The notes below the pieces were generated by a model. The model did not search any database, was not told the DNA's origin, and saw nothing but the letters and a program-made list of their open reading frames with translations. This document shows positions 4,374 through 55,378 of a stretch of DNA of 64,000 nucleotides, one piece after another (position 1 is the first letter of the stretch; each line of letters starts with the position of its first letter). This DNA comes from an uncultured bacterium (lineage in GTDB: Bacteria; Hydrothermota; Tepidihabitantia; SM23-42), in the NCBI GenBank assembly GCA_964419565.1, contig CAYQPW010000007.1, positions 31,398 to 95,397 on the forward strand, written 5' to 3'. Both the position numbers and the translations under genes were made by a program.

Positions 4374-4382
4374 CATGTATTT

Positions 4383-42118: not shown

Positions 42119-42874
42119 ATGCCTGAAAAAGATAATATAATGGATACAATTGCTGAATCCAATAAATCGGTCGTTACTGGGATCGATGAAAAGGACATCG
42201 AACATTGGATCACCATATCCATCCTGGGAAGAGAATACAAGGTTCCTGCAGGCCTTACGATCATGCAAGCGATGGAATTTGCAGGCTATCGATTTATTAG
42301 ATCGTGCGGTTGTCGAGCAGGATTCTGTGGTGCTTGTACGACCGTTTACAGGATCGAGGGCGATTACCGGTTGAAAACTGCGATGGCTTGTCAAACAAGA
42401 GTTGAACAGGGTATGTACCTGACTCAGATTCCTTTTACACCAGCCGAAAAAGCGAACTACGATATCAATAAACTATCCCCAGGTATTGAGGCTTTCTTGG
42501 CTAATTATCCCGAGATTCTAAGGTGTTTAGGTTGTAATGCGTGCACTAAGGCATGTCCTCAGGATATTGATGTGATGGAATATATCGCCGCTGGTAAAAG
42601 AGGCGATGTCGGATTGATGGCAGAAATATCTTTTGATTGCATAATGTGTGGATTGTGTGCAATACGCTGTCCTGCAGAACTCGCGCAGTATAATTATGCT
42701 CAGCTCGCGAGGAGGCTCCATGGGAAATATGAAACACCAGCTCCAGAACATTTAAACGCAAGGGTAAAAGAGATCGGCGATGGCAAATACAATTCAGAAC
42801 TCGATAAACTTGTGCAGACTAATACAGAGGAATTAAGAAAACTGTATACCGCACGGGATATAGAAAAGGCTTGA
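42119..42874 (+). CDS. succinate dehydrogenase / fumarate reductase Fe-S subunit-like protein
   Basis: N-terminal 2Fe-2S pattern SCGCRAGFCGAC...C, then CLGCNACTKACP and CIMCGLCAIRCP ferredoxin motifs. 251 aa. Confidence 0.75.
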   Translation: MPEKDNIMDTIAESNKSVVTGIDEKDIEHWITISILGREYKVPAGLTIMQAMEFAGYRFIRSCGCRAGFCGACTTVYRIEGDYRLKTAMACQTRVEQGMYLTQIPFTPAEKANYDINKLSPGIEAFLANYPEILRCLGCNACTKACPQDIDVMEYIAAGKRGDVGLMAEISFDCIMCGLCAIRCPAELAQYNYAQLARRLHGKYETPAPEHLNARVKEIGDGKYNSELDKLVQTNTEELRKLYTARDIEKA

Positions 42875-42884
42875 GGGGGTAAAA

Positions 42885-44540
42885 ATGGCAGAACTGAAAT
42901 TCATCGGTGGTTATCCAGAATACATGAGAAAGCATATCGAAGTGGTCAACAGCACCAGGGCTCAGCGCAAGGATTTCACCCCTAAAGCGATGACCATGGA
43001 AGAGCGTGATGAAGTGCTAAAAGTCCACCCTGATTATGCCCCTGGCGGGAAACGTGCGATCGGCTTAGGACCCAATAAAGGGGATATGGCACCGAATGAA
43101 GTGGCTGATCTACTTGAAGCATATCCTTTGATCAAGGGCGATGAAATAGATGTGAACAAACCGGATTACACTGTCGACCTTTTGATCGTGGGCGGCGGTC
43201 TGGCTGGAACTTCAGCGGCGGTCTGGGCAAATGATAAGGGTGTTGATACAGAGAAGATACTTCTTGTGAATAAATTACGGCACGGCGATGCTAATTCAAT
43301 AATGGCTGAGGGTGGTACTCAGGCGGCAGATCGAGATAATGATTCGCCAGCGCGTCATTTCCTTGATGCGATCGGTGGTGGTCATTTTACAAATAAACCC
43401 GATGTATTAAGAGCTCTTGTTGAAGATGCACCGCTCATTATGAAGTGGCTTTGCGATCTGGGTGCGATAATCGACCGTGAAAACGACAGCAGTTTTGTTG
43501 AAAAAGCCGGCGGTGGAACATCGAGAAGAAGGATGCATGCATGCAAAGACTACACAGGATTGGAAGAGTTGAGAGTTATCAGGGATGAATTCAGGAGCCG
43601 GCAGATACCGTGCATTGAATATTATCCGGTCATAGAAATCCTGACCGACGGCAATCGGGTAACGGGTGCAGTGCTCTACAATCTGGAGACCGGTGATTAC
43701 AAGATCGTACAGGCCAAAGCCACGATTTTGGCAACCGGCGGTTTTGGAAGACTCCATGTTCGTGGTTTTCCAACGACAAATCATTATGGTGCGACTTGTG
43801 ACGGTGTTGTCCTTGCCTACCGCGCCGGTGCCAGACTGAGAGATACGGATACGGTCCAGTATCATCCGACCGGTGCTGCATACCCTCAGCAGATAATCGG
43901 TCTTTTGCTAACCGAGAAACTAAGAGGCATGGGTGCGCAGCCGGTCAACAAAGATGGCGAAGCATTCGTTTTTCCTCTGGAACCACGTGATGTCGAAGCA
44001 GCGAGTTTTATTCGAGAGTGTTATGTGAAAGACAAGGGTGTTGTAACACCTACTGGTATGCGTGGTGTCTGGCTTGATACACCGATGATCGAGTTGAAAA
44101 ATGGCAGCGGCGCGATTGAAAAATCATTTCCGGGTATGTTTCGTATGTTCCAACGGTTCGATCTTGATATGCGTAAAGATCCGGTTCTTGTATTCCCTAC
44201 ATTGCACTATCAGAATGGCGGCGTTGAAACCGACCCGTGGGGAAAGACGAATGTCGATGGCTTGTGGGTTGCCGGTGAAGTTTCTGGCGGCGTGCATGGC
44301 AAGAACCGTCTCATGGGTAACTCAACCCTTGATTGCTTGGTTTTCGGTCGCAGGTCAGGGATCTCTACTGCCGAATATCTTAAATCTAATCCCGGGTATG
44401 GGAAATTAACGACCGATCATTTGAATAATTATGTGAAATTGCTCAAAGAGGCTGGTATCGAGACGACCCGTAAGGCACCTATTTTACTCCCTGAATACCG
44501 CGGTAAGGCAGTACTGGCTCGTATGATCGATATTTTTTAG
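42885..44540 (+). CDS. SdhA/FrdA-family FAD flavoprotein with N-terminal extension
   Basis: LLIVGGGLAGTSAA dinucleotide fold begins near residue 98. VQYHPTG, TLHYQNGG and GEVSGGVHGKNRLMGNS motifs. GDANSIMAEGG has Asn where SdhA has the FAD-linking His. Confidence 0.8.
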   Translation: MAELKFIGGYPEYMRKHIEVVNSTRAQRKDFTPKAMTMEERDEVLKVHPDYAPGGKRAIGLGPNKGDMAPNEVADLLEAYPLIKGDEIDVNKPDYTVDLLIVGGGLAGTSAAVWANDKGVDTEKILLVNKLRHGDANSIMAEGGTQAADRDNDSPARHFLDAIGGGHFTNKPDVLRALVEDAPLIMKWLCDLGAIIDRENDSSFVEKAGGGTSRRRMHACKDYTGLEELRVIRDEFRSRQIPCIEYYPVIEILTDGNRVTGAVLYNLETGDYKIVQAKATILATGGFGRLHVRGFPTTNHYGATCDGVVLAYRAGARLRDTDTVQYHPTGAAYPQQIIGLLLTEKLRGMGAQPVNKDGEAFVFPLEPRDVEAASFIRECYVKDKGVVTPTGMRGVWLDTPMIELKNGSGAIEKSFPGMFRMFQRFDLDMRKDPVLVFPTLHYQNGGVETDPWGKTNVDGLWVAGEVSGGVHGKNRLMGNSTLDCLVFGRRSGISTAEYLKSNPGYGKLTTDHLNNYVKLLKEAGIETTRKAPILLPEYRGKAVLARMIDIF

Positions 44541-44570
44541 CACAGATCATTGATATCGGCTTGATATATG

Positions 44571-44600
44571 AAGGGGCAGCGTGAAGCTGCCCCTTTTTTA
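44571..44600. terminator. rho-independent terminator between convergent genes
   Basis: AAGGGGCAGC-GTGAA-GCTGCCCCTT stem-loop (8 GC-rich bp plus AA/TT) followed by TTTTTT. Lies between the SdhA-like stop (44540) and the minus-strand stop (44625). Confidence 0.85.
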
Positions 44601-44624
44601 TTATTAACCGTAATCCGTTATCGG

Positions 44625-46208
44625 TTAACTGTCCAATATCTTGTTTACTTCTTCCTTGTCAACATCCATGACATAGGGGATACCCGAAATCTTGGCCGCT
44701 TCCTTGGTGATCGATGCGATGTCATCACGGGTGATGTGTTCGAGCGCGAATTTTCGGTTTCCAGTCATTAATTGCTTGAGCCCCTGGGCAAGCCGTTCAA
44801 TATATGTATATACACCCAAGGCGCCGGTTGGTACCTGGTCAAAATCTTTACCCAGTTCTTTGCGTAATTTCGGTGCAGTCACGAATATCTCTTCTTTTCT
44901 ATTCCCAAAACGCTCGACAAATACGGGTACTTCTGCTTCGTTTATCTTACGACCAATGGTTTTCCCGACCATCGCGGCACATAACGGAGCCCGGGCCATA
45001 CCCACGAGCTTTGTATAAGGTGCACCGAGCGCCAGGGCTTTAAATATCTGGTCTTCGAATGCGATACCGCCGGCAAATGCCAGGTCTGCTACATACTTGC
45101 CTTTCTTTGCCAAGCGGTGTGTATACTCATAGGTAAGCGAATGGATCTCGACCGGCGGTATACCCCATTCATTCATCATGCGCCATGGACTCATGCCCGT
45201 ACCGCCGCCGGCACCGTCAACAGTCAATAGATCGATCTTAGCTTCCGAAGCGAATTTTACAGCTCGTGCCAGATCAGCCGGACGGTAAGCACCAGTTTTT
45301 AGGAAGACATATTTTGCACCTGCTTGACGGAGTTCCTCGACTCTCTTGCAGAAAGATTCCAGCTCGACCATACCGATCCTAGAATGTCTTTCAAATTCAG
45401 AAAAGGCTCTTCTATTGAAGGCTTCGATAACATCCGGGTCTAATGGATCGGGTAAAACCACATAACCGCGTTTTCTCAGGGTCTGGGCTTTTTTAAGGTC
45501 CTTTATTTTTACTTCTCCGCCGATATCTTTTGCGCCTTGTCCCCATTTTAATTCAGCGGTTTCGACACCTAATTTCTGTATGGCAAATTCCTGTACACCA
45601 AGCCTCGTATCTTCTACGTTAGCCTGGATAATGATCATACCATAACCATCTTTCTGCCATTTCTTATAGGTTTTTACACGGTATTCCAGGTCTGGTGCTT
45701 TAAGGATCTTCCCGTTCTTAATCTCACTTGTCATATCCATGGCTACGACATTCTCGCCAATTGTAAGCATGCACCCGGCCAGGGCTGTGCCGATCGCGAG
45801 TCCGTCCCAGTTGTTCTTGGCTACATTTGTCGATCCCAGGCCCGGGACAACCATGGGGAACTTCAACTTGATGGATTTATTAGCACCCACTTTCTGGTTC
45901 AAGTTGACATTAGGGAAGATCGCTTTATCCGGATCAGCTTCGATACCGATCGCGCCTACGGCCGTTCCCATGATATTGAAGTGGGAATAATCGACTGGAT
46001 AGTTCTTTTCTGATGCAGCAGTTATGATTCCAAATGGCTGCGGATAGATAACTTCGTGACCGCGGTAAGCAGATTTACCGACTTCGCACATACCGATACA
46101 GCCATCCACACAGGTGACGCACATCCCACTTAAGGGTACTATAGAATCTTCAGTTCTATTTTTTGTTAAGGTTGCAGCTGACGCATTTATTTTTGATAAA
46201 GACGGCAT
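44625..46208 (-). CDS. glutamate synthase domain-2-like FMN/Fe-S oxidoreductase (GltB-related)
   Basis: VDGAGGGTGMSP FMN-domain signature and N-terminal CVTCVDGCIGMC cysteine cluster. ATG at 46208 follows AAAGGAG; the GTG at 46223 in the track overlaps that ribosome-binding site. Confidence 0.8.
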   Translation of the reverse strand: MPSLSKINASAATLTKNRTEDSIVPLSGMCVTCVDGCIGMCEVGKSAYRGHEVIYPQPFGIITAASEKNYPVDYSHFNIMGTAVGAIGIEADPDKAIFPNVNLNQKVGANKSIKLKFPMVVPGLGSTNVAKNNWDGLAIGTALAGCMLTIGENVVAMDMTSEIKNGKILKAPDLEYRVKTYKKWQKDGYGMIIIQANVEDTRLGVQEFAIQKLGVETAELKWGQGAKDIGGEVKIKDLKKAQTLRKRGYVVLPDPLDPDVIEAFNRRAFSEFERHSRIGMVELESFCKRVEELRQAGAKYVFLKTGAYRPADLARAVKFASEAKIDLLTVDGAGGGTGMSPWRMMNEWGIPPVEIHSLTYEYTHRLAKKGKYVADLAFAGGIAFEDQIFKALALGAPYTKLVGMARAPLCAAMVGKTIGRKINEAEVPVFVERFGNRKEEIFVTAPKLRKELGKDFDQVPTGALGVYTYIERLAQGLKQLMTGNRKFALEHITRDDIASITKEAAKISGIPYVMDVDKEEVNKILDS

Positions 46209-46251
46209 TTTTTCTCCTTTCACTGTAAAAGTTTTTTGGCGAATGGTAATA

Positions 46252-46273
46252 GGTTACGATGCCCGTTGTACGT
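46252..46273. repeat. left arm of inverted repeat flanking the four-helix-bundle ORF
   Basis: GGTTACGATGCCCGTTGTACGT. Its core ACGATGCCCGTT is complementary in 11 of 12 nt to AACGGGCTTCGT at 46720-46731. Confidence 0.65.
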
Positions 46274-46286
46274 ACAGTCCTGACGA

Positions 46287-46697
46287 TCACGAACCATTTT
46301 TATCATCCTGCCTAAACTGGCGCCATGCCGATAATAGATTATAAAGCTGGCGTCCAGATTTATCATAGACATCTATTAAATTTTCACAAAGCGAGGTATC
46401 TACAAGATGACCATAGATATCTCTTGTTTGACATATGCTTACAACTGTTTCATTACATTCAGCCATTGCATCGTCCAAATACTTGCGAAATCCAGACTTC
46501 TGATGCCTTTTAGCATAACCTTCAGCAATAAGGCGGGGGATAGCTTTTGAAGATCGGCTCAGTTGACTTACCAGATCATATTTCTCGTTCTTTAGCAATT
46601 GGGGGATCAGTTTTTTCATTACTTCTATACAGGCAGTGTATGTGTTTCGATACACCTCAAGGTCTTGAAAACTGGTTATTCGTTTTCTATTCTTCAT
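46287..46697 (-). CDS. four-helix-bundle protein (23S rRNA intervening-sequence protein / Avd family)
   Basis: 136 aa. FQDLEVY...QLSRSSKAIPRLIAEGYAKR is the hallmark of this family. Confidence 0.8.
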   Translation of the reverse strand: MKNRKRITSFQDLEVYRNTYTACIEVMKKLIPQLLKNEKYDLVSQLSRSSKAIPRLIAEGYAKRHQKSGFRKYLDDAMAECNETVVSICQTRDIYGHLVDTSLCENLIDVYDKSGRQLYNLLSAWRQFRQDDKNGS

Positions 46698-46710
46698 ACG
46701 TATCCCTTTG

Positions 46711-46748
46711 ACGACGAACGAAACGGGCTTCGTTGCCCTTGCCGATAC
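46711..46748. repeat. right arm of inverted repeat flanking the four-helix-bundle ORF
   Basis: ACGACGAACGAAACGGGCTTCGTTGCCCTTGCCGATAC. Contains a local AACGAA/TTCGTT hairpin and shares the CGTTGCCCTTGCCG motif with 49342-49356. Confidence 0.65.
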
Positions 46749-46751
46749 ACA

Positions 46752-47450
46752 TCATTTTTTACTTTTCCGTTGATCTGGCCTGCCTTCGCAAGTGCCGCAG
46801 TCACCGGTCGTTCCCATCCAGCATTGATAGTCATCGTGTGTTTCAATGCAGGTTGGTTCGAGTGAAAGACAGCCACTGCACAGGTCAGTCGTTGCATCTG
46901 GACCCTGACATCGTAACTGACAAGCCGGGCAGATATAGATGCAACCACCACACAGGCGACATGTTTCTGATCTTATGTCAAAAGGGGTGGTGATTTTCTT
47001 TTTATAACCCCGTTCAACGAAACCGATCGCACCTGCTTGCATCTGCTCTTTGCACATCCTGACACATTTTCCACACAGAATACAATCTTCATGTCGTACA
47101 GGTAGTCTTACCTTGGTGACGCTAAATTTTGATGCCAGGTCCTGGATCGTCTTTGATGAAGGGCAGATCGCAACGAGCATTTCGATCATCATCTTGCGCG
47201 CCTTTATTACTCTTTTCGTATTTGTGCGTACGACAAGTCCATCCTCGACAGGATAGGTACAAGAACTAACAAGTTTGGCACTGTCGCCTTCACCGATCTC
47301 TACAAGGCATAGCCGACAGCCACCATAAGGTTCTAACCCATCGTCATAACACAGTGTTGGGATTTCAAGACCATAGAACTTGCAAACCTCCAAAACCGTT
47401 GTATAACTATCAGGAACCCGGACATTGAGACCATTTAGTTTTATTGTCAT
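46752..47450 (-). CDS. NuoG/HydA N-terminal-like Fe-S protein (2Fe-2S plus 4Fe-4S), no catalytic domain
   Basis: CYDDGLEPYGGCRLCLVEI..SC 2Fe-2S pattern; CILCGKCVRMC and CRLCGGCIYICP ferredoxin motifs; Cys-rich tail. Ends at 232 aa with no H-cluster motifs. Confidence 0.75.
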   Translation of the reverse strand: MTIKLNGLNVRVPDSYTTVLEVCKFYGLEIPTLCYDDGLEPYGGCRLCLVEIGEGDSAKLVSSCTYPVEDGLVVRTNTKRVIKARKMMIEMLVAICPSSKTIQDLASKFSVTKVRLPVRHEDCILCGKCVRMCKEQMQAGAIGFVERGYKKKITTPFDIRSETCRLCGGCIYICPACQLRCQGPDATTDLCSGCLSLEPTCIETHDDYQCWMGTTGDCGTCEGRPDQRKSKK

Positions 47451-47462
47451 TTTTGCTCCTAT

Positions 47463-49256
47463 TTACTCGACCAGTATGGCTTCGAATCTGCATACTTCTG
47501 CACACGAACCACATTTTGTACATTTCTTTTGATCGATAGTGTGTACTTCTTTTTTCTTGCCTGAAATAGCATTTACGGGGCATACTTTCAAACAGGCCAT
47601 ACAGCCTGTGCAGCGTTCGTCAAGGATAGTATATTTTATTAGTGGTTTGCATACACGAGCCGGGCATTTCTTATCTTTAATATGCGCAATGTATTCGTCT
47701 TTGAAATATCTCATTGTCGACAAGACCGGGTTGGCTGCAGTTTGCCCAAGACCGCACATTGAGGCGTCCTTTGTCGCGATGGCTAGATCTTCAAGCAGCT
47801 CAAGATCAGAAAGCTCGCCTTTGCCCTTAGTTATTCTGTCAAGTATCTGCCACATCATCTGGGTACCCTCACGGCATGAAAGACACTTACCGCACGATTC
47901 GTCTCTTAAGAAATTCATAAAGTATTTGGCAACATCGATCATGCACGTCTCTTCATCCATGACGATCATCCCGCCTGAACCCATCATTGAACCGACTTTT
48001 GTTAGACTTTCATAGTCGATCGGTAGATCAAGGAGATTTTCGGGGATGCAGCCACCAGAGGGACCGCCTGTTTGAACTGCCTTGAAACGCTTGTTATTGG
48101 GGATACCCCCGCCAACATCATAAATGATTTCTTTTACTGTGAGTCCCATTGGTACTTCAACGAGTCCAGTGTTGTTTATTTTACCTACTAGTGAGAATAT
48201 TTTAGTACCCTTGCTACCTTTGGTGCCCATGCCAGCAAACCATTTCGCACCTCTGAGGATTATCTGGGGGACGTTCGCCCAGGTTTCAACATTATTTATG
48301 TTCGTAGGTTTATTGAATAAACCTCTCTTCACTGGATAAGGTGGTCTTTGTTTGGGCACACCGATGCGACCAGAGATCGCAGCTAACAGTGAAGTCTCCT
48401 CACCGGACACAAAAGCACCCGCACCGCGAACAACCTCGATCGTGAAGTTGAAGCCGGTTCCAAGAATATCTTTTCCAAGTAAACCATATTCATTAGCTTG
48501 TTTTATCGCGATATTGAGGCGCTTTAAGGCCAAAGGATATTCAGTACGAACATATATGAATCCTTTTTGTGCACCGATGGCTTTTGCACCGATCGTCATA
48601 CCTTCAAGTACAGCATGGGGGTCTGCTTCAAGGATACTCCGGTCCATAAAAGCACCTGGATCGCCTTCATCTGCATTGCAAACCAGATATTTCACTGGTT
48701 CCTTTTCTTCTCTGCAAAGCTCCCATTTCCGTCCTGTCGGAAACCCGGCTCCGCCACGACCACGAAGTCCCGAGGTTTTTATCTCATCGATTATTACTTT
48801 TGGTTCCATTCCAGAGAGTGCTTTTTCCAGAGCTTTATAACCGTCAAAGGCGATATATTCTTCAATATCCTCTGGGTCGATGCGACCGCGATTTCTCAAT
48901 ACGATCAATCGTTGGTGTTTGAAAAAACCAATATCACTCATTTTAGGTATCGGTTTTTCTTCCTTCGGCGGGACATACATTAATTTTTTTACGGGTCGCC
49001 CTTTTAAAAAATGTTCTTCAACAAGATGGGGGATATCGCGAACAGAAAGATTTTGATAGAAAATACCTTCGGGTTGTACAACGACTATCGGTCCACGTTC
49101 ACAGAACCCATTACATCCTGTTGATATGACCGCTATTTCTTTTTGCAGCCCTCTTTTTGCGATCTCGGTTTCTAGTGCTTTCTTGATCTCGAAAGACCCT
49201 GCCGCGACACATCCAGTTCCAGCACAGACAAGCAAATGTGTTCGATATTGTTTCAA
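47463..49256 (-). CDS. NuoF/HydB/HndC-like NADH-binding FMN Fe-S subunit
   Basis: N-terminal thioredoxin-like 2Fe-2S (LLVCAGTGC..GCNGFCERGP), GLRGRGGAGFPTG FMN/NADH motif, ESCGKCLSCREG N3 cluster, two C-terminal CxxCxxCxxxCP motifs. TTG start 5 nt after AGGAGG. Confidence 0.9.
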   Translation of the reverse strand: MKQYRTHLLVCAGTGCVAAGSFEIKKALETEIAKRGLQKEIAVISTGCNGFCERGPIVVVQPEGIFYQNLSVRDIPHLVEEHFLKGRPVKKLMYVPPKEEKPIPKMSDIGFFKHQRLIVLRNRGRIDPEDIEEYIAFDGYKALEKALSGMEPKVIIDEIKTSGLRGRGGAGFPTGRKWELCREEKEPVKYLVCNADEGDPGAFMDRSILEADPHAVLEGMTIGAKAIGAQKGFIYVRTEYPLALKRLNIAIKQANEYGLLGKDILGTGFNFTIEVVRGAGAFVSGEETSLLAAISGRIGVPKQRPPYPVKRGLFNKPTNINNVETWANVPQIILRGAKWFAGMGTKGSKGTKIFSLVGKINNTGLVEVPMGLTVKEIIYDVGGGIPNNKRFKAVQTGGPSGGCIPENLLDLPIDYESLTKVGSMMGSGGMIVMDEETCMIDVAKYFMNFLRDESCGKCLSCREGTQMMWQILDRITKGKGELSDLELLEDLAIATKDASMCGLGQTAANPVLSTMRYFKDEYIAHIKDKKCPARVCKPLIKYTILDERCTGCMACLKVCPVNAISGKKKEVHTIDQKKCTKCGSCAEVCRFEAILVE

Positions 49257-49291
49257 CTCAACCTCCTATGAAAAAAACAGGTAAGGGTATT

Positions 49292-49380
49292 GGGCTACGA
49301 TGCCCGTTTCGTAAGATAAGGTGACGTTTATATTGTCTCTACGTTGCCCTTTGCCGTTGAACGATACGGGTTGCGTTACT
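49292..49380. repeat. ORF-less copy of the repeat that flanks the four-helix-bundle gene
   Basis: GGGCTACGATGCCCGTTTCGT ... CTACGTTGCCCTTTGCCGTTGAACGATACGGGTTGCGTTAC. The arms can pair (about 13 bp including G-U). Lies in the 142-nt gap between the hndB-like and nuoF-like genes. Confidence 0.65.
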
Positions 49381-49398
49381 GTTACCTTTACCATTCTG

Positions 49399-49782
49399 TT
49401 AATAGGTTCTCTCACTGCCTACAGCTAAGGCATATTCTTTCACAACATTCCCTTTGAGGACGTGGTCTTCCAGTATCTTCTTCATCTTGGTTGTAGTTAG
49501 ATCGACATATTTCACTGGTGGTTTGCCGCTTATTTCGACGGTAGCCATTGGTTCACGGCTGCACAAACCGGCACATCCCGAGGTGGTGACGATTACGTCC
49601 CTTATTTTTTTCTTGTCGATTTCACTCATCAAGTTGGTGAGAATTTCACGAGCACCGGCAGCAATACCACAAGTCCCCATGTGTACTGTTATCTTGGCTT
49701 TCGCTTTACCTTGTCTTAGATTAGCTGTTCTTCTTACTTTATCCCTTATTTTTTCTAAATCGCCGATTTTCAATTTCTTCAT
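49399..49782 (-). CDS. thioredoxin-like [2Fe-2S] ferredoxin (HndB-like)
   Basis: 127 aa. VHMGTCGIAAGA and TSGCAGLCSREP cysteine pairs. Confidence 0.8.
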   Translation of the reverse strand: MKKLKIGDLEKIRDKVRRTANLRQGKAKAKITVHMGTCGIAAGAREILTNLMSEIDKKKIRDVIVTTSGCAGLCSREPMATVEISGKPPVKYVDLTTTKMKKILEDHVLKGNVVKEYALAVGSERTY

Positions 49783-50336
49783 TTATTACTCCTTTCATCA
49801 AGTTTTTTAAACTCTTTTTTTAAATTATTTCTCAAATATTTGATAACTTCAGAATTATTTAATGGTATATCTTTTAGGTCTTTCTTAATTGTTTTTGTAT
49901 CAAAGATAAAAGTATAATTGTTTTTATGGTGTTTATATAAAAAATCTACGTCCAGACCCTGGGTAGCGACTAAGGTCATCAATGTTTTGGTCATATCGCC
50001 GATAGGTTTACGGTCGATATGATCGTGCATAAAAGTTGCAGTTATTGTCGTACCTTTTCCTTTTTTCGATTTTATGTGGAAGCTGCCGTTTGCTTCTTTT
50101 GTTGCTTGAGCTAACATCGATAAACCAAGACCGATCCTTCTGGTTTTTTTGGTACTGAAAAATGGATCAAGAGCTCTAGTCAATGTTTTTTTATCCATGC
50201 CCATACCATTATCCTGGATCGTCAAAATCAACTTATTTCTTGCGGTATCTTCATTGATAGATATTTTAATCTTTTCTGCGCCAGCCGCAATGCTATTTTC
50301 CACGATATCAAGTACATGAAGTGAGAGGTCTTGCAT
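49779..50336 (-). CDS. HATPase_c-only protein (histidine-kinase-like ATPase without HisKA domain)
   Basis: N box VENSIAAGA, DNGMGMD (G1), GLGLSM (G2). 185 aa, no phospho-acceptor His domain. ATGA overlap with the next gene. Confidence 0.75.
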   Translation of the reverse strand: MQDLSLHVLDIVENSIAAGAEKIKISINEDTARNKLILTIQDNGMGMDKKTLTRALDPFFSTKKTRRIGLGLSMLAQATKEANGSFHIKSKKGKGTTITATFMHDHIDRKPIGDMTKTLMTLVATQGLDVDFLYKHHKNNYTFIFDTKTIKKDLKDIPLNNSEVIKYLRNNLKKEFKKLDERSNK

Positions 50337-50338
50337 CG

Positions 50339-51085
50339 CTATGCTTCCATAATGATATTTCGCCCGTCGCGTTTAGAAAAAGCCATTTTTATTTCACTCA
50401 AAGTTGGTTGTGCGAGTAGAAAAGACGTCGTGACTTTACCGATATCCTCGAGGAAGTGCGCATCCGAAGATGTTACTAATGGATATCGAGCGGTCGCGGG
50501 AAATTTAATGTTTACCTGAGCCCGTGTCGTGTTTGGAGAAATTTCAAGTGCATCGATATTAAGACCGTCGGGTATGAACCCGAGCTGCCCAAAAATGCTG
50601 TAGGTTTCACGATCAATATGAGAGGCTATAACCAGACCGCTATTGAGATGGATCTGCTTGACTATTTCAGCTAAAGGCAGTGTCGTAGCACTGATAAGGA
50701 GTCTGTTATTATACGCTTCAACTTCATCAAATTCATTTACAACAATCTGCTGTCCGAAAAGTTCTTCATTATTCTCACCCGGCATTAATGCTTTATAGAC
50801 CAATTTTTGCATTGTCAATACTGCATCTACAGTATCGAACAGTGCGATCATGTGGACTTCTTCGGAACTGGCTACTTCCATACCTGCTAATACAGCGAGG
50901 TCTTTTCCTTTTGCGGCATTAAATGTTGCTCTTACGTTCTCGGCAGAATTGTGATCACAAACTGCTATGATATCAAGCTTCATTTCCTCAGCTTTTGCCA
51001 CGATCCTTTTGGGTGACATCGTTAGGTCGGCACACGGCGACAAACACGTATGAATGTGGAGATCTGCTCGATAACATTGGAGCAT
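50339..51085 (-). CDS. PHP-domain phosphoesterase
   Basis: ADLHIHTCLSPCA and AVCDHNS motifs of the PHP fold; 248 aa. Confidence 0.8.
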   Translation of the reverse strand: MLQCYRADLHIHTCLSPCADLTMSPKRIVAKAEEMKLDIIAVCDHNSAENVRATFNAAKGKDLAVLAGMEVASSEEVHMIALFDTVDAVLTMQKLVYKALMPGENNEELFGQQIVVNEFDEVEAYNNRLLISATTLPLAEIVKQIHLNSGLVIASHIDRETYSIFGQLGFIPDGLNIDALEISPNTTRAQVNIKFPATARYPLVTSSDAHFLEDIGKVTTSFLLAQPTLSEIKMAFSKRDGRNIIMEA

Positions 51086-51444
51086 TACCGTATTCCAGAT
51101 ATGCCTACTTTATATAATCTACCGATCAATTCAAAAGCCGGTAGATCACTTGTGAGAATAATGATGTTTTCTGTTTTTGCTTTGTTTAGAGTCTCTGCAT
51201 CAGGTATACGGTCGTTAACTATAATTATGCCAGCCAATTCTTTTAGTTTAGCGACCGCAACGATATTCGGGTGCCCCTGCAACGTTACCCAAATGTCACC
51301 CGCTTTGGTATTGGCCATGACATCGCTGAGCAGATCACTTGCGTAGCCACCTTTGATTTCCCGCTCAATAAGCTCTGGGCAGGTGACTGCCTTCGTGTTA
51401 CATGTATCAATAACATCTGATATCTTTATTTTTTTATCGTTCAT
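51085..51444 (-). CDS. DRTGG-domain protein
   Basis: 119 aa. SDLLSDVM...VTLQGHPNIVAVA...GIIIVN...IIILTSDL..F pattern of the DRTGG domain. Confidence 0.7.
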   Translation of the reverse strand: MNDKKIKISDVIDTCNTKAVTCPELIEREIKGGYASDLLSDVMANTKAGDIWVTLQGHPNIVAVAKLKELAGIIIVNDRIPDAETLNKAKTENIIILTSDLPAFELIGRLYKVGISGIR

Positions 51445-52724
51445 TTCTTTCCCTTGTTTTTTCTGATAAATAAACAGCCACTTAATTGCGCTTCATCACG
51501 TGCCACATCTTCAGCAAATGTTCGACAATCAGGCGCACCGCATACACCGCAATCTGTGCCGGGTAGTCTTTTCAATGTTTTTTCTATTAGTTCGGTTTTC
51601 CTGATCGCCTTTTCTCTGTTTTTATCAAGAGGTGCGAACGGTTTGGGCTTTACAGCTGCCTCAAACGAGAAATATTTTTCTTTATACAGCTTTTTAACAA
51701 AATGAGCGTCGACTCTTTTTTTACCGCCAAAGGTTTTGATCAACCGAAGAACATTACTTTTTGCGACAAATCTGTTTTCAACGGTCAACGGGCCACCAAT
51801 ACAGCCGTCAGGACATATCAAACATTCAAGGTATTCGATATTCCTGAGTTTCCCGGCCTCAACATCTTCGAGGATCTTTATTGTATCATAGACACCTGAT
51901 ACTGAAGCAGAATGAAAGTATTTTAAGCCACGGATCTCACCGCCTTCTATGGTCCAGCCGATCCCGATCCCGCTTATTTGACTGTGGGCGTCGAGGATGC
52001 GCGGGGTCTTAGTTCTTTTTAATTTCAACATCACATCGTTATAGATCTCCTGTATCGATAAGGCACCATCGAGGTTCGATTTTTTCATAGTTTCCGGGTA
52101 ATTTATTGAGACCATTTTTGCTGCACAAGGTGTGATATGTATGATACCGATATCTTGTTCTGCTACATTACGTTCACTGGCAATGTCAGATCGCAGATTT
52201 TTTGCAGCTATTTCGCGTGGTGGTTCGATAGGGATGATAAGATCGCAGAGGCTGGGGAATAAACGCTGAATAAGCCGAACGACTACCGGGCATGTCGACG
52301 AGATAACTGGTTTTGGTCCTTTGTTCTCGTCCAAGTATTCCTCGATCGCCCGGCTTGTCATCTCGCACATCCAGGCTTCATCATAGACCAGGTCAAACCC
52401 AAGGTCTTTAACTACTGCAAGAATTTCATTTGGCATGACATGTTGACCAAACTGAGAATATAATACTGGAGATGGAAGCGCAACCTTAAATTTAAATTTG
52501 TCAAGATCTGCTGAGGATGTAGTGATCGGTATGACGGCATTATATGGGCAGACCCGTAAGCACTCGCCGCAGTCAATACAACGTTCCTCATTAATAACCG
52601 CTTTATGGTTTTTCACCCTTATTGCTCGGGTTGGACAATGTTGCATGCACCGGACACAGCCGATGCACTTTTTTTTGTCTATTTTTACCGAGTGAAAACG
52701 TCGAGTTTTAATCGTATGTCCCAT
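51441..52724 (-). CDS. [FeFe]-hydrogenase-like protein, probably sensory rather than catalytic
   Basis: Two N-terminal ferredoxin motifs (CIGCVRCMQHCP, CIDCGECLRVCP). H-cluster-domain-like motifs SSTCPVV, ITPCAAK and ECLICPDGCIGGP. C-terminal CGVCGAPDCRTFAE (RnfB-type Fe-S domain). Confidence 0.75.
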   Translation of the reverse strand: MGHTIKTRRFHSVKIDKKKCIGCVRCMQHCPTRAIRVKNHKAVINEERCIDCGECLRVCPYNAVIPITTSSADLDKFKFKVALPSPVLYSQFGQHVMPNEILAVVKDLGFDLVYDEAWMCEMTSRAIEEYLDENKGPKPVISSTCPVVVRLIQRLFPSLCDLIIPIEPPREIAAKNLRSDIASERNVAEQDIGIIHITPCAAKMVSINYPETMKKSNLDGALSIQEIYNDVMLKLKRTKTPRILDAHSQISGIGIGWTIEGGEIRGLKYFHSASVSGVYDTIKILEDVEAGKLRNIEYLECLICPDGCIGGPLTVENRFVAKSNVLRLIKTFGGKKRVDAHFVKKLYKEKYFSFEAAVKPKPFAPLDKNREKAIRKTELIEKTLKRLPGTDCGVCGAPDCRTFAEDVARDEAQLSGCLFIRKNKGKK

Positions 52725-53151
52725 TTAAATTAAATATCATCTCTAATCTGGTGCTCTTACCCAGAGTTGAACGTATATCGAAGTGATCTGAATTCTTTTT
52801 GATGTTAGGTAGACCCATGCCTGCGCCAAAGCCCATTTCTCTTACTTCTTCTGTTGCTGTTGAATAGCCTGGCTTCATAGCTAGTTCGATATCAGCTATA
52901 CCTGGTCCTTTATCTTCGACCTTAAGAGTTATATTCTTCGCGTTTATGATAACCTTCATTAGACCACGCTCCGCATACATGACAACATTCATTTCTGCTT
53001 CATACGCAGCAATGGCGACCCTTCGTATGATGTCGGGGTCAGCACCGATATCTTTCAATATATTACGTATTTTTATGGAAGATTCACCGGCGTTTATGAA
53101 ATCTCCACCCTTTATCCTAAAAACTCGTTCAAAAGCAGCTTTGCCACGCAT
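52708..53151 (-). CDS. RsbW/SpoIIAB-like anti-sigma-type serine kinase (HATPase_c)
   Basis: 147 aa. AAYEAEMNVV (N box), EDKGPGI, GFGAGMGL. Confidence 0.7.
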   Translation of the reverse strand: MRGKAAFERVFRIKGGDFINAGESSIKIRNILKDIGADPDIIRRVAIAAYEAEMNVVMYAERGLMKVIINAKNITLKVEDKGPGIADIELAMKPGYSTATEEVREMGFGAGMGLPNIKKNSDHFDIRSTLGKSTRLEMIFNLNGTYD

Positions 53152-53157
53152 TATTTA

Positions 53158-53517
53158 TTAATTTTTCGAGTCTATAATAACACCTTTTATACCGTTAGCG
53201 TGCAGTATCCCGCATGAATCGAACATAGAGAGATTTGTTGTGAGAAGAGCGATATCGCAGTCCTTGCTTAATTTAACTGTTTCGGCTGAAGGTTCTTTCC
53301 CCCGGACAAAGACCACTGCACAAATGCCTGCAATATCACATGTCCGGATGACCTGGACATTGACCAATCCGGTCAAGAGAAGTTTGCCAGGTCCTGAAAA
53401 TCTGAGGACATCGCTCATCAGATCCGAGGCTTTTGCTGATTTTACATCTATTAGCAATTTATCAGAGCCGCACAAGAGTCTGCAGTTGAGCAATTCTTTT
53501 ATTTTTTTCAGAGTCAC
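53158..53517 (-). CDS. DRTGG-domain protein (second copy)
   Basis: 119 aa, paralogous to 51085-51444 (ASDLMSDVL..LLLTGLVN..AVVFVRG..IALLTTNL..F). GTGA overlap with the nuoE-like stop. Confidence 0.7.
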   Translation of the reverse strand: MTLKKIKELLNCRLLCGSDKLLIDVKSAKASDLMSDVLRFSGPGKLLLTGLVNVQVIRTCDIAGICAVVFVRGKEPSAETVKLSKDCDIALLTTNLSMFDSCGILHANGIKGVIIDSKN

Positions 53518-54281
53518 TTTCTTTTTTTGGTAGTTCTTTTCTTTTTTGAACTTCTTGTTATTCTTTTTTTAGCTTTTTTCTTTATTTTTTTCTTCGCAGG
53601 TTTTTTAGTAATTATTTTTCTCTTTTTTCTCTTGATGCTGGTTGTTTTTTTACTCCTCTTTACGCGTTTTGCTGGAATCTGTTTTTTCGTGAGTCTTTGC
53701 CTTTTTGGTTTTTTTGTAATTTTTTTCTTAGCTTTTATCTTAGTTATTTTTTTTGTAGTTTTCTTTTTAGCTTTTTGTTTGATTTTCTTTTTTCCCTGTG
53801 CCTTCATTGCTTTTGGTTTTTCTTTATTCTGATTTTCGATGATTAAATCAGCTTTTTTAGCGGTCGCTTTCCCATAATATTTTCCATCAACAACGACGAT
53901 AGGAGCTAATGCACAAGCCCCGAGACATGCAACTGTCTCTAATGTATAATTACCATCTTTGCTTGTACAACCCGGCTCGAGCTTGAGTCGATCCCGCAAA
54001 CGATCGAGAACTGCTGGAGCACCACGCACATGGCATGCCGTACCCAGACAGACTGTTACCAGATGTTTACCACGCGGTGTCAAGCTAAAAGCACGATAAA
54101 ATGAAGCTACGCTATAAACATCGATCAGAGGTATGGACAGTTCTTCTGATACCATGCTCAAAATCTCAGGAGGTAGCCAGTTGTACGCATCCTGGATGTC
54201 CTGAAGCACAGCGAGAAGACCGGATTTTTTCTTTCTATATCGTTTAATAATAGTTGAAGCTTTGCTAGTATTTAGTTTCAT
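53514..54281 (-). CDS. NuoE/HydC-like [2Fe-2S] subunit with about 100-aa lysine-rich C-terminal tail
   Basis: CLGTACHVRG and CLGACALAPIVVVDG cysteine motifs of NuoE. The last 106 residues contain 58 K/R by my count. GGGAG ribosome-binding site. Confidence 0.85.
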   Translation of the reverse strand: MKLNTSKASTIIKRYRKKKSGLLAVLQDIQDAYNWLPPEILSMVSEELSIPLIDVYSVASFYRAFSLTPRGKHLVTVCLGTACHVRGAPAVLDRLRDRLKLEPGCTSKDGNYTLETVACLGACALAPIVVVDGKYYGKATAKKADLIIENQNKEKPKAMKAQGKKKIKQKAKKKTTKKITKIKAKKKITKKPKRQRLTKKQIPAKRVKRSKKTTSIKRKKRKIITKKPAKKKIKKKAKKRITRSSKKKRTTKKRK

Positions 54282-54314
54282 ATAACTCCCTTCAGGATAT
54301 CATATTAGCTGATT

Positions 54315-54342
54315 ATTATATTGAATTTCTCACTCAAGTCAA
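54315..54342 (-). promoter_or_regulatory. sigma-70-type promoter of the nuoE-like operon
   Basis: On the minus strand TTGACT (54342-54337), 16-nt spacer, TATAAT (54320-54315), about 34 nt upstream of ATG 54281. Confidence 0.6.
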
Positions 54343-54421
54343 TAACATAGAAAGCATGAAATCATATAGCTAGCAGGTCGCGCCAGGGCTTTTTTAGTCT
54401 AAATTGTGGTAGTTTTAATGG

Positions 54422-55378
54422 TTATTTTTCTTCTTCTAATAATTTGACTTTTTCGCGTGCATTTACGATATAGCGTTTGACATCCTTATAATCAGGACAC
54501 ACTTCTATGACCAGATTCCATTCGCTTATCGCTTGTTCAAGCCGATCGTTGACATAGTGTTCGATCCCTTTAAGATAGTGTTTTTCACAGTATTGCCTGT
54601 CTTTTTCTGATAACGGTTGATCAGGGGCTGGTTTGGGTTCTTTTTTTATTACTGTTTTTTCAATGACTACCGGTTTATCGATTAGCAGGGTATCGACGAC
54701 CGTTATTTTTTTTGTTACGACAGGAGGACGGAAGTTAAAACCGATCAGCAGTTTTAAGGTGTCTTCGTAGAGCACTAAAGCATGGATGAAACTTCGAAAA
54801 TCCAAGGATACTGCACCGCTGAGCAGACCCGGTCGGAAACCACCATATAAGCCTATACTAAAATCACCGATCGGTTGTTTAAGAGCGATAATCCCATGAG
54901 GGGTAATCTCTCGATTACGTAAGGAATCTTGTATTTCAACGGCTGCGGTCAACTGTCGCCAGGTATAGGAGATTCCGCCCCTGAGTATCTTGTCATCATT
55001 GAGAATATTGGAAAAGCTGGTACCTAATGATACCTTGCCGTGATACCATGCGCCAAGGTCAAAAAGCGGGTCGGTTTGGTCGTATATTTTCAGGATGCCA
55101 GCATTGAAACCAATCGAGAAAGGGATCTTTTTGACATGGTATGAGATACTGCCCCAATTTCTTCGTTCGCGGCCTTCATGCATGTTCGAGAAACCAAGAC
55201 CGAAGTCTAAAAATCGTGCAGAAGCGCTAAAGACGGTGATTTCGCCGATGTCTTTTGGTTCAATAACGACCTGATAATTACCTTGATAAGCAGTATATGC
55301 CGCATTCGAAAAAGTCTGGTAACTGATCGGTGTTGAGACACTATTGAGACTGAACGCTAAAATAATGAGGGTAAGCAA
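54422..55378 (-). CDS. hypothetical exported protein: beta-rich N-domain plus C-terminal TPR-like helix pair
   Basis: Hydrophobic N-terminus, alternating beta-strand-like pattern for about 210 aa, Lys/Pro linker, then KHYLKGIEHYVNDRLEQAISEWNLVIEVCPDY. TTG start 3 nt after the pepA stop. Confidence 0.4.
   Translation of the reverse strand: MLTLIILAFSLNSVSTPISYQTFSNAAYTAYQGNYQVVIEPKDIGEITVFSASARFLDFGLGFSNMHEGRERRNWGSISYHVKKIPFSIGFNAGILKIYDQTDPLFDLGAWYHGKVSLGTSFSNILNDDKILRGGISYTWRQLTAAVEIQDSLRNREITPHGIIALKQPIGDFSIGLYGGFRPGLLSGAVSLDFRSFIHALVLYEDTLKLLIGFNFRPPVVTKKITVVDTLLIDKPVVIEKTVIKKEPKPAPDQPLSEKDRQYCEKHYLKGIEHYVNDRLEQAISEWNLVIEVCPDYKDVKRYIVNAREKVKLLEEEK

Follow-up and report, generated by a model that had tools for sequence, protein, structure and literature searches.

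What are six genes for sensor-like and switch-like proteins doing inside an operon for a NuoE/NuoF-type flavin/iron-sulfur enzyme? The locus lies in a 64,000-nucleotide stretch of contig CAYQPW010000007.1 from an uncultured bacterium (the window, to which all positions refer unless another locus is named). We designated the six genes A to F; they encode two DRTGG-family proteins (A and D), a SpoIIAB-like ATP-binding protein (B), a sensor-type [FeFe]-hydrogenase (C, HydS), a PHP-family phosphoesterase (E) and a second ATP-binding protein (F). We suggest that A-F form a module that senses H2 or redox state and acts on the NuoEF core through phosphorylation or partner binding, a reading that we hold to be about as probable as its negation. 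The argument is built on the domain identities of the proteins, the conservation of their ligands, synteny, tight gene junctions, three fusions and independence from HydA, all of which were observed.

The cassette and its proteins

The operon belongs to a run of 13 consecutive minus-strand open reading frames (ORFs) leading from 54281 to 44625. Its genes are as follows, with lengths in amino acids (aa).

53514-54281, minus strand: NuoE/HoxE-like [2Fe-2S] subunit, thioredoxin-like, BfuC type; 255 aa; Pfam 2Fe-2S_thioredx 1.3e-49 over residues 9-150
53158-53517, minus strand: A, DRTGG-family protein 1; 119 aa
52708-53151, minus strand: B, SpoIIAB/RsbW-like GHKL ATP-binding protein; 147 aa
51441-52724, minus strand: C, HydS, assigned to the group D (M2e, TamHydS-type) [FeFe]-hydrogenases; 427 aa
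51085-51444, minus strand: D, DRTGG-family protein 2; 119 aa
50339-51085, minus strand: E, PHP-family phosphoesterase; 248 aa
49779-50336, minus strand: F, stand-alone histidine-kinase-type ATP-binding domain with an alpha/beta second domain; 185 aa
49399-49782, minus strand: HndB/HydD-like small thioredoxin-like [2Fe-2S] protein; 127 aa
47463-49256, minus strand: NuoF/HydB-like flavoprotein, BfuB type; 597 aa
46752-47450, minus strand: HoxU-like / N-terminal HydA-like Fe-S protein without an H-domain; 232 aa
46287-46697, minus strand: 23S rRNA intervening-sequence protein family gene; 136 aa; PF05635 1.6e-15
44625-46223, minus strand: protein with a glutamate-synthase-type flavin mononucleotide (FMN) domain, last operon gene; 527-532 aa; Glu_synthase 1.7e-15

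Because nuoE precedes the cassette in the window, all six genes lie inside the enzyme operon. An earlier note on this DNA had placed the six minus-strand ORFs between a nuoE-like and an hndB/nuoF-like gene, and we located all of them there. Every gene overlap that it listed was confirmed when the sequence was read: GTGA at 53514-53517 (nuoE-A), 17 nt at 52708-52724 (B-C), ATGA at 51441-51444 (C-D), a one-base TAATG overlap at 51085 (D-E) and ATGA at 49779-49782 (F-hndB), so that hndB is translationally coupled to F. At the other two junctions the genes do not overlap: 6 nt separate A from B, and 2 nt separate E from F. The same genes are called in public records of identical metagenome contigs, where the Glu_synthase protein has 527 aa. 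The claim that the operon has no catalytic hydrogenase was likewise borne out: a Bfu-type pair of NuoF-like (BfuB) and NuoE-like (BfuC) proteins is present, accompanied only by the HoxU-like and Glu_synthase-type FMN proteins, with no HydA.

Judged by its domain layout and active-site substitutions, C is a group D (M2e, TamHydS-type) [FeFe]-hydrogenase. Pfam assigned it two Fer4 domains, Fe_hyd_lg_C (2.5e-29) and FeS PF04060 (3e-12), and there was no PAS domain among its 15 Pfam hits at E <= 0.01. Eight N-terminal cluster cysteines, C20 to C59, make up two [4Fe-4S] motifs; a C-terminal Cx2Cx4Cx16C motif consists of C392, C395, C400 and C417 (window 51474-51551), and the protein terminates 10 residues past the last of these. 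The M2e subclass of Land et al. has this same composition, with 2x[4Fe-4S], the H-domain, a C-terminal Cx2Cx4Cx16C and no PAS, together with loss of C299 and changes of M353 to Ser/Thr and of M497 to Leu (PMC8163306). In an alignment of 80 homologues taken from the fetched loci, the H-cluster ligands C145, C200, C304 and C308 (C300, C355, C499 and C503 in CpI) were retained in 80/80, with or without a nearby HydA, and the eight N-terminal and four C-terminal cluster cysteines were nearly invariant whatever the genomic context. The proton-relay position, CpI C299, is T144 in C and was a Cys in 0/80 homologues; that of CpI M353 is T198, and was Thr or Ser in 72/80; that of CpI M497 is Leu. The description of C in the earlier note as a hydrogenase-like Fe-S protein is thus supported by the Fe_hyd_lg_C match but understates a protein in which every H-cluster ligand is kept.

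Since all cluster ligands are kept and the proton-relay cysteine is lost, as in TamHydS, slow turnover of H2 with high affinity would be expected of HydS. TamHydS itself combines low rates with high H2 affinity and interconverts H+ and H2 near the thermodynamic potential (PMC8163306). The closest solved structure to C is the group A enzyme DdHydAB, at only 2e-21, and no group C or group D structure has been solved. Group D [FeFe]-hydrogenases are widespread and have been called sensory since about 2010-2012; Carere (2012) classed M2e as sensory and found it upstream of bifurcating hydrogenases, often with a kinase gene between (PMC3561251). Group D was still termed functionally undefined in 2024 (PMC11216029), and the interaction partners and signalling route were still being asked for in April 2026 (PMC13104023), in keeping with the earlier note, which was not aware of a mechanistic characterisation. 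One further locus, L037, holds two kinds of hydrogenase-based sensor, as a HydS-like protein fused to HisKA and HATPase_c (2957-5044; 695 aa) lies just upstream of a complete A-F cassette there; a receiver-kinase hybrid (5417-6928) likewise lies just upstream.

The two DRTGG proteins were recognized through their relatives. The window copies of A (E = 0.074, 13.3 bits) and D (E = 0.024, 14.9 bits) both fall under the DRTGG gathering score of 25.2, whereas PF07085 was matched at E <= 0.01 by 21/24 orthologues of A (best 3.8e-8) and 21/24 of D (best 3.5e-9), so the assignment proposed earlier stands at the family level although the window copies are sub-threshold. The orthologues also gave weaker matches to the HPr-kinase and PucR N-domains, and among solved structures A and D matched, weakly, only the DRTGG region of the CBS-pyrophosphatase 3l2b and the HPr kinase N-domain. 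Residues D32, M34, S35, T49, K74, P76 and C102 of A are invariant. At L042 (8685-9545), a HycI-type NiFe-hydrogenase maturation protease domain is directly upstream of, or fused to, an A-type DRTGG protein, an arrangement that may be an ORF-calling extension.

For B and E, the domain calls of the earlier note (an RsbW/SpoIIAB-like HATPase and a PHP phosphoesterase) were upheld. B matched Pfam HATPase_c_2 above its cut-off (1.2e-8, 35.4 bits against 27.4), and its best NCBIfam match was SpoIIAB (spIIAB, anti-sigma F factor; 3e-13), at 49.8 bits against an equivalog cut-off of 135. Its nearest solved structures, SpoIIAB 1tid/1th8, matched weakly (E = 0.006). The ATP-binding boxes of B (N box EAEMN, G1 DxGxG and G2 GFGAGMGLPN) are conserved in 64 orthologues. 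E matched PHP (4.4e-10) and PHP_C (3.4e-6), and 58 orthologues conserve its metal-ligand positions: HxH (H10, H12), DH (44-45), E70, H78, H156 and DxH (208-210). They also conserve a CxxxC right after the HxH (C14 and C18, in HTCLSPCAD), in which C18 occupies the place of a third His ligand in some PHP enzymes; the pair could be a metal ligand or redox-sensitive. RNase AM 7ug9 and 3e0f are the solved structures nearest to E.

F matched Pfam HATPase_c (1.7e-16) and HATPase_c_3 (6.5e-11), and no Pfam match to HisKA was found in B or F. Its family comprises about 980 stand-alone proteins of 180-200 aa, and sources label its relatives 'anti-sigma regulatory factor (Ser/Thr protein kinase)'. The nearest sequence matches to its ATP-binding domain are the catalytic and ATP-binding (CA) domains of KinB, VicK and WalK. 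An AlphaFold2 (AF2) model built from 44 sequences (pLDDT 87.6, pTM 0.84) placed a Bergerat fold at residues 1-103, followed by a helix, a beta-hairpin and a helix. Foldseek aligned the full-length model with the ATPase-plus-transducer units of MutL, MLH1 and TopoVI-B (TMq 0.53-0.60, root-mean-square deviation (rmsd) 5-8 A), while its coverage against kinase CA domains was only about 100 residues. The residues H106, D108, R109, K110, P111, G113 and H136 are invariant, all but the last in an H106-x-D-R-K-P-x-G113 loop after the ATP-binding fold. We considered whether F might be a reversed histidine kinase, as HIDRKPLG resembles the H-box HE(L)R(T)PL; this was rejected, as in the model the motif forms a short helix plus a loop, from which the chain enters the alpha/beta domain. 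Given a model that lacks a dimerization and histidine phosphotransfer (DHp) domain and the full-length alignment to MutL, MLH1 and TopoVI-B, we regard F as an ATP-binding protein of uncertain chemistry. The earlier description of F as an HATPase_c protein lacking HisKA was right, but F is not simply a truncated histidine kinase, its modelled second domain being alpha/beta.

These proteins can also be read as assembly or maturation factors of the Fe-S/flavin complex, with GHKL proteins as clamps, the PHP protein in nucleotide processing and no signalling at all. The full-length alignment of F with two-domain GHL ATPases (MutL, MLH1 and TopoVI-B) rather than kinases points this way, as do the resemblance of E to nucleotide phosphoesterases and the absence of the products of hisK and hydD, two accessory genes of a related operon, from a purified holoenzyme (PMC9304861). 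The TM-scores of 0.53-0.60 are however modest and the rmsd is 5-8 A; HydABC and other Bfu enzymes assemble in organisms or hosts without the cassette (PMC9304861); and hallmarks of signalling, not of assembly, are seen in the sensor-type substitutions of the H-cluster protein, in the resemblance of B to SpoIIAB and in the receiver domain that NuoE carries in relatives (described below). We consider an assembly role improbable.

Conservation, fusions and attached enzymes

We scanned species-representative genomes with a HydS alignment, collecting loci by two HydS peptide patterns, which gave 79 loci, and compared about 90 loci overall; neighbours were identified by calling ORFs and comparing them, with phmmer, to the proteins of the window and to a small number of additional domains. 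The nearest relative of the window is 92% identical, followed by Candidatus Stahlbacteria at about 80%. Carriers of the cassette include WOR-3/Stahlbacteria, TA06, KSB1, Zhuqueibacterota, Gemmatimonadota, Acidobacteriota, Desulfarculus and Negativicutes/Bacillota, with the isolates Lucifera butyrica and Anaerospora hongkongensis among them, and metagenome-assembled genomes labelled Aminicenantes, Gemmatimonadota or Acidobacteriota were among those sampled. The gene order A-B-C-D-E(-F) is conserved over dozens of loci in several phyla. After start refinement (n = 37 to 69; 49 for F-hndB), median gaps were -4 nt for nuoE-A, A-B, B-C and C-D, -1 for D-E, +3 for E-F and +2 for F-hndB. In the 44 loci whose flanks reached 2.5 kb or more before HydS and 6.5 kb or more after it, A, B and D occurred together in 43/44, the full A-F set in 36/44 and nuoE with nuoF in 39/44. 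At L036 and L011 an apparent loss of nuoE/nuoF coincides with masked N runs directly after E/F. HydA with a real H-domain was found in only 11/44 of these loci. Profiling against HydA, a check that the earlier note had proposed, therefore shows the cassette to be independent of HydA, and in this HydS clade an operon without a catalytic hydrogenase is the common case.

What changes from lineage to lineage is the enzyme beside the cassette. In Negativicutes/Bacillota it is HydABC, and in WOR-3 it consists of NuoF fused to GltD together with a HoxU-like and a Glu_synthase-like protein. Other partners were GltD/GltS-like modules and NuoG/Fdh-like proteins accompanied by GltD as a separate protein, and KSB1 has an Hdr/MvhD-like set. 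Acidobacteriota have Stn-like proteins of 1250-1277 aa; the order there is D-A-B-C, and E and F are absent. The Negativicutes/Bacillota order is A-B-C-D-E / nuoE-F-hndB-nuoF-hydA, and the break of about 100 nt between E and nuoE, with F between nuoE and hndB, indicates that A-E are one block and that F travels with nuoE/hndB. These loci (L058-L078), with the published survey (PMC3561251), bear out the earlier statement that comparable sets adjoin bifurcating [FeFe]-hydrogenases in Firmicutes. Their HydA proteins carry an oddity of their own: in 12/12 of those next to the cassette (L058, L060, L061, L063-L066, L069, L070, L072, L074 and L078) the motif is TSCSPGW, with Ser at the [4Fe-4S]H ligand corresponding to CpI Cys300, and the other two H-cluster motifs are canonical.

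HydS could also be a working subunit instead of a sensor. Docked through D on the NuoE/NuoF/HoxU-like core, it would supply the H-cluster that the operon otherwise lacks and make the complex either a slow hydrogenase in separate parts or a reductase that depends on H2 and supplies the glutamate-synthase-like module, with B, E and F regulating or assembling it. In all contexts HydS retains the H-cluster ligands and its N-terminal 2x[4Fe-4S] relay, TamHydS is able to interconvert H+ and H2 close to the thermodynamic potential (PMC8163306), and the HoxU-like protein corresponds to the N-terminal part of HydA, so that HydS would add the missing H-domain. D is fused to HydS in some loci and also co-occurs with the core, and 'group A' [FeFe]-hydrogenases have been annotated in Ca. 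Stahlbacteria (PMC12542636). Yet in Negativicutes/Bacillota the HydABC beside the same cassette is complete and includes a HydA, which makes HydS dispensable for catalysis in those loci. The proton-relay cysteine is lost in 80/80 HydS, the characterised member, TamHydS, is slow (PMC8163306), and HydS-free loci keep D, HndB and the receiver-NuoE fusion with a Cys-rich protein at the HydS position, which looks like sensor exchange. We regard a catalytic role for HydS as quite unlikely.

Fusions and reduced versions of the cassette suggest which proteins work together. A and B are fused in L010, L016 and L017 (in L010 by Pfam DRTGG 4.6e-7 and HATPase_c_2). In these three loci a second, reduced set, consisting of D, the fused A-B and a second HydS (419-424 aa), lies upstream of nuoE and is followed in the same locus by the full nuoE-A-B-C-D-E-F set. 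HydS carries D as a C-terminal extension in L050, L053, L059, L062 and L077, Desulfarculus-type loci included. An exhaustive library search with D returned 1304 representative clusters, mostly stand-alone proteins of 110-120 aa, with several HydS-D fusions of 516-563 aa and FeS(PF04060)-DRTGG proteins that are possibly fragments. In the third fusion, an N-terminal receiver domain with the DD, Asp, Thr, Lys signature is joined to NuoE in L039, L045, L046 and L047 (Pfam Response_reg 2e-32 and 2Fe-2S_thioredx 4e-51); both domains were found in 119 of the best 120 clusters, down to 42% identity. The receiver-NuoE gene is directly downstream of A-F in L039, L046, L047 and L089, and in L039/L045-L047 it takes the HndB position after A-F, at L045 after a gap of about 3.3 kb that contains a duplicated receiver fragment. 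KSB1 has the full cassette upstream of receiver-NuoE.

More distant receiver-NuoE loci miss HydS, B, E and F, and have a D-type DRTGG gene (4e-23 to window D) and HndB (7e-36) directly upstream. At the HydS position, upstream of the D-type gene, these loci encode a Cys-rich protein of 177-181 aa with no Pfam match, which may be an alternative sensor:

L086, 6610-7149: Cys-rich protein
L087, 6637-7170: Cys-rich protein
L088, 6578-7117: Cys-rich protein
L090, 485-1030: Cys-rich protein

Together, the fusions and reduced loci link A with B, D both with the sensor and with the NuoEF core, and phospho-signalling with NuoE.

The core itself is typical of Bfu-type enzymes in its domains. The NuoF-like protein matched Complex1_51K (3.4e-47), NADH_4Fe-4S (6.6e-32) and Fer4, and is laid out as an N-terminal [2Fe-2S] domain, the FMN/NADH site and a C-terminal 2x[4Fe-4S] domain. 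It has 597 aa in the window and in L026 and about 1025 aa in most WOR-3 relatives, where GltD-like Fer4_20 and Pyr_redox_2 domains are fused to it; the NuoF of the 92%-identical relative (L084 13426-16506) has this GltD-like extension and that of the window does not. The HndB-like protein matched 2Fe-2S_thioredx at 5.8e-5, slightly under cut-off, and a clostridial 2Fe-2S ferredoxin model at 4e-10. The HoxU-like protein matched Fer2_4 (9.4e-13) and Fer4_7, without an H-domain or molybdopterin domain, and its NCBIfam matches extend over no more than the initial ~95 residues of the A6 model of HydA and the initial ~120 of HoxU. The Glu_synthase-type FMN protein, kept at the same position in WOR-3-type loci, is likely the operon's catalytic module. 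The 23S rRNA intervening-sequence family (four-helix-bundle) gene is in the same place in relatives, with two copies in L085.

Window NuoE ends in a tail of 104 aa (residues 152-255; window 53517-53828) that is 56% K+R with one acidic residue and recalls the histone-H1-like tails that bind nucleic acids. Long NuoE proteins, of 231-261 aa, are restricted to Stahlbacteria-like relatives, most others having about 165 aa. Past the operon end, and abutting it, genes for a Fer2/Fer4 protein (251 aa) and a FAD_binding_2 protein (551 aa) are convergent on the plus strand (42119-44540), with a GC-rich hairpin at 44570-44596 between this pair and the Glu_synthase-type gene. Farther away, window 1-33400 encodes methylmalonyl-CoA mutase/MeaB, carboxyltransferase and biotin carboxylase sets, enoyl-CoA hydratases, thiolases and a 3-hydroxyacyl-CoA dehydrogenase, so that the context of the redox operon is one of propionate and fatty/amino-acid fermentation genes; DnaB, Mla and RadA-type genes are also present in the window.

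Transcriptional regulators and promoter candidates

No HTH (helix-turn-helix) or receiver family matched the six genes by Pfam at E <= 0.01, no sigma factor is encoded in the window operon or among the annotated neighbours of the cassette in relatives, and across about 90 loci the conserved set contains neither a sigma factor nor an HTH protein. The earlier claim that the module has no DNA-binding component holds for the six genes, but the closest relatives carry a kinase and a sigma54 NtrC-type regulator two genes upstream. In the 92%-identical relative and most WOR-3 loci, genes for a dCache histidine kinase, the sigma54 NtrC-type regulator (HTH_8) and a glutamate dehydrogenase come before nuoE, placed between an M17 peptidase / 318-aa gene and nuoE (L084 3357-8359, corresponding to window 54282-54421). 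The window is collinear with this relative, minus those three genes and the NuoF GltD extension. In Lucifera butyrica, a Rex-type redox-sensing repressor (Put_DNA-bind_N and CoA_binding; L064 17702-18346) directly follows hydA. Transcriptional regulators thus surround some versions of the cassette but are variable, and rex in Lucifera is a separate transcriptional layer.

The output could still be transcriptional by way of a factor encoded elsewhere, with B as a SpoIIAB/RsbW-type anti-sigma factor or controlling an unlinked regulator, a DRTGG protein as its antagonist and HydS setting the switch. The best curated match of B is an anti-sigma F factor model and its nearest structure is SpoIIAB, though at 49.8 bits against a cut-off of 135 the match is weak; relatives of F are named 'anti-sigma regulatory factor (Ser/Thr protein kinase)'. 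Deletion of the group C sensor gene hfsB in Thermoanaerobacterium alters adhE transcript levels (PMC5707799), an AraC-family regulator adjoins TamHydS according to Land et al. (PMC8163306), and the sigma54 NtrC-type regulator lies two genes upstream in WOR-3 relatives. The conserved set of about 90 loci, however, includes no sigma factor or HTH protein, and nothing but NuoE, NuoF and HndB is constant among its neighbours. The receiver domain is joined to NuoE and not to a DNA-binding domain, and the window has lost the upstream two-component pair with the cassette intact. A transcriptional output is in our estimation unlikely, if not negligibly so.

Where the relatives have the kinase, regulator and dehydrogenase genes (window 54282-54421), the window has a sigma70-like site:

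54315-54342, minus strand: sigma-70-like promoter candidate upstream of nuoE, TTGACT-16 nt-TATAAT, a consensus match only (11/12)

This was the top site of a 10-kb scan, in which the number of sites in the region did not exceed that in shuffles. A sigma54 promoter before nuoE was also considered, as a TGGC...TGCT string is present, and was rejected, the GG-GC offset being 10 by eye and not 12. The hndB-nuoF spacer (49257-49398, 142 nt) is the sole long gap in the operon; in relatives this gap runs from 13 to about 500 nt (medians 29 and 105). A riboswitch or attenuator in the spacer was discarded after a scan of 44000-55000 gave zero Rfam matches at E <= 1.

A proposed route to NuoEF and its relation to known systems

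The arrangement that we favour, a sensing module acting directly on the NuoEF core, can be laid out as a sequence of steps. HydS would report H2 or a low-potential redox state, turning H2 over slowly and with high affinity. D would be the adaptor on the sensor side, between HydS and the NuoEF core, and A an adaptor partnered with the SpoIIAB-like protein B. B could be a Ser/Thr kinase or an ATP-dependent binding switch, opposed by the PHP phosphoesterase E, and B and E would jointly set the state of one DRTGG adaptor, by analogy with SpoIIAB/SpoIIAA/SpoIIE, the DRTGG protein standing in for STAS and the PHP protein for PP2C. F, with its kinase-type ATP-binding domain and transducer-like domain and encoded with NuoE/HndB, would link the cassette to the enzyme. 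The output would be the NuoE-NuoF (Bfu-type) flavin/iron-sulfur core, where the flow from NADH and ferredoxin into the catalytic module may be tuned post-translationally to the surrounding H2 or redox state; here that module would be the HoxU-like and glutamate-synthase-like FMN proteins, not a hydrogenase. Four elements of this scheme are inferred: H2 as the signal, the assignment of modifier and substrate, the sign of the regulation, and an effect on activity rather than assembly. The NuoEF core as target, proposed in the earlier note, gains indirect support: the cassette follows nuoE/nuoF whatever the partner, a receiver domain is fused to NuoE in many lineages, and D and HndB persist without HydS.

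Several observations weigh against this scheme. No phosphorylation site can be assigned from the sequence, no STAS or PP2C domain occurs in any operon protein (the PHP protein being the sole phosphoesterase), and no receiver domain was found by Pfam in window NuoE or elsewhere in the window operon. F, as modelled by AF2, shows neither a DHp nor a phospho-acceptor helix, its second domain being alpha/beta and not a helical hairpin, which leaves no obvious donor in the cassette for the NuoE-fused receiver. E is closest to nucleotide/RNA phosphoesterases (RNase AM and pAp phosphatase models) and not to PHP protein-tyrosine phosphatases. The C-terminal cluster of TamHydS does not change redox state under H2 (PMC13104023). 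HydE, HydF and HydG are absent from the window and the flanks examined, and no HydF-like ORF came up when all flanks were scanned for motifs. At L015, L032 and L073, nuoE/nuoF are missing within 8-10 kb and these are genuine exceptions. Finally, the sample is biased towards this HydS clade, because loci were collected with two HydS peptide patterns. After the direct NuoEF scheme and the assembly, subunit and transcriptional alternatives are counted, a very small remainder of our confidence goes to none of the four.

A wider claim would be that the cassette is a general H2-informed post-translational controller of Bfu enzymes (hydrogenase, Stn/Nfn-, Fdh-, Hdr- and glutamate-synthase-like), with DRTGG serving as STAS, PHP as PP2C, NuoE as the control point and the sensor exchangeable. 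We offer this tentatively, as possible and not as probable. If NuoEF is indeed controlled directly, the effect would reach far past hydrogenases, with electron bifurcation in fermenters and syntrophs gated by ambient H2. The locus and its relatives also give a short and testable partner list for group D signalling: D with the HydS C-terminal domain, A with the SpoIIAB-like protein, the PHP phosphoesterase, the ATPase encoded with NuoE/HndB and, in many lineages, the receiver on NuoE. For annotation, an [FeFe]-hydrogenase match beside nuoE/nuoF in WOR-3-like genomes need not imply H2 production. If the Ca. Stahlbacteria 'group A' calls (PMC12542636) rest on this HydS, H2 production may be over-interpreted there.

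Parts of this picture have been published already: M2e hydrogenases beside kinase genes and bifurcating hydrogenases, possibly as sensors (PMC8163306, PMC3561251). In the searchable literature we found nothing that combines DRTGG, PHP and hydrogenase, and we did not find the six-gene composition, its cross-phylum conservation or its attachment to non-hydrogenase NuoEF enzymes; nor did we find the A-B, C-D and receiver-NuoE fusions or the HydS-free reduced version.

The cassette can be set beside several characterised systems. TamHydS of Thermoanaerobacter mathranii has the same domain layout as C, with no PAS, C299 lost, M353 changed to Ser/Thr and M497 to Leu. The group C (M2f) sensors, HydS of Ruminococcus albus and Thermotoga maritima and HfsB of Thermoanaerobacterium, share the lost proton relay and the C-terminal [4Fe-4S] motif. 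Ser/Thr kinase and phosphatase genes lie near the bifurcating hydrogenase in that group, and a regulatory role is genetically supported (PMC5707799). Group C sensors have a fused PAS domain and Ser/Thr kinase/phosphatase partners, whereas the window has no PAS and has two DRTGG proteins, a PHP protein and a second ATP-binding protein instead. The HoxBC/HoxJ/HoxA system of Ralstonia eutropha shares the idea of a low-activity hydrogenase as an H2 sensor coupled to a kinase-type protein (PMC5707799), but HoxBC belongs to the unrelated [NiFe] class and HoxJ is a PAS histidine kinase acting on a DNA-binding regulator, while the cassette is without HisKA or a DNA-binding regulator and the only receiver domain among its relatives is fused to NuoE.

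Partner-switching modules (SpoIIAB-SpoIIAA-SpoIIE and RsbW-RsbV-RsbU) resemble the cassette in that a small GHKL protein like B is paired with a small alpha/beta protein and encoded alongside a phosphoesterase, B being sometimes fused to its partner here; they have STAS, PP2C and a sigma factor, and the window locus has none of these, with DRTGG and PHP in their place. In the NiFe-HydABCSL operon of Acetomicrobium mobile, 'hisK' and 'hydD' are encoded among nuoE/nuoF-type genes and both products are absent from the purified enzyme (PMC9304861), a finding that fits F and HndB and suggests that they are accessory. These two genes match F and HndB, which in the window belong to a larger set with HydS, two DRTGG proteins, the SpoIIAB-like protein and the PHP protein. 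The group D loci of Firmicutes (Csac_1857, Athe_1292 and Teth39_1463) have kinase-like genes and a NuoE/NuoF-type operon nearby, as in the window. The window differs from them in that nuoE precedes the cassette, there is no HydA, the partner is HoxU-like plus Glu_synthase-type, and the lineage is Stahlbacteria/WOR-3-like.

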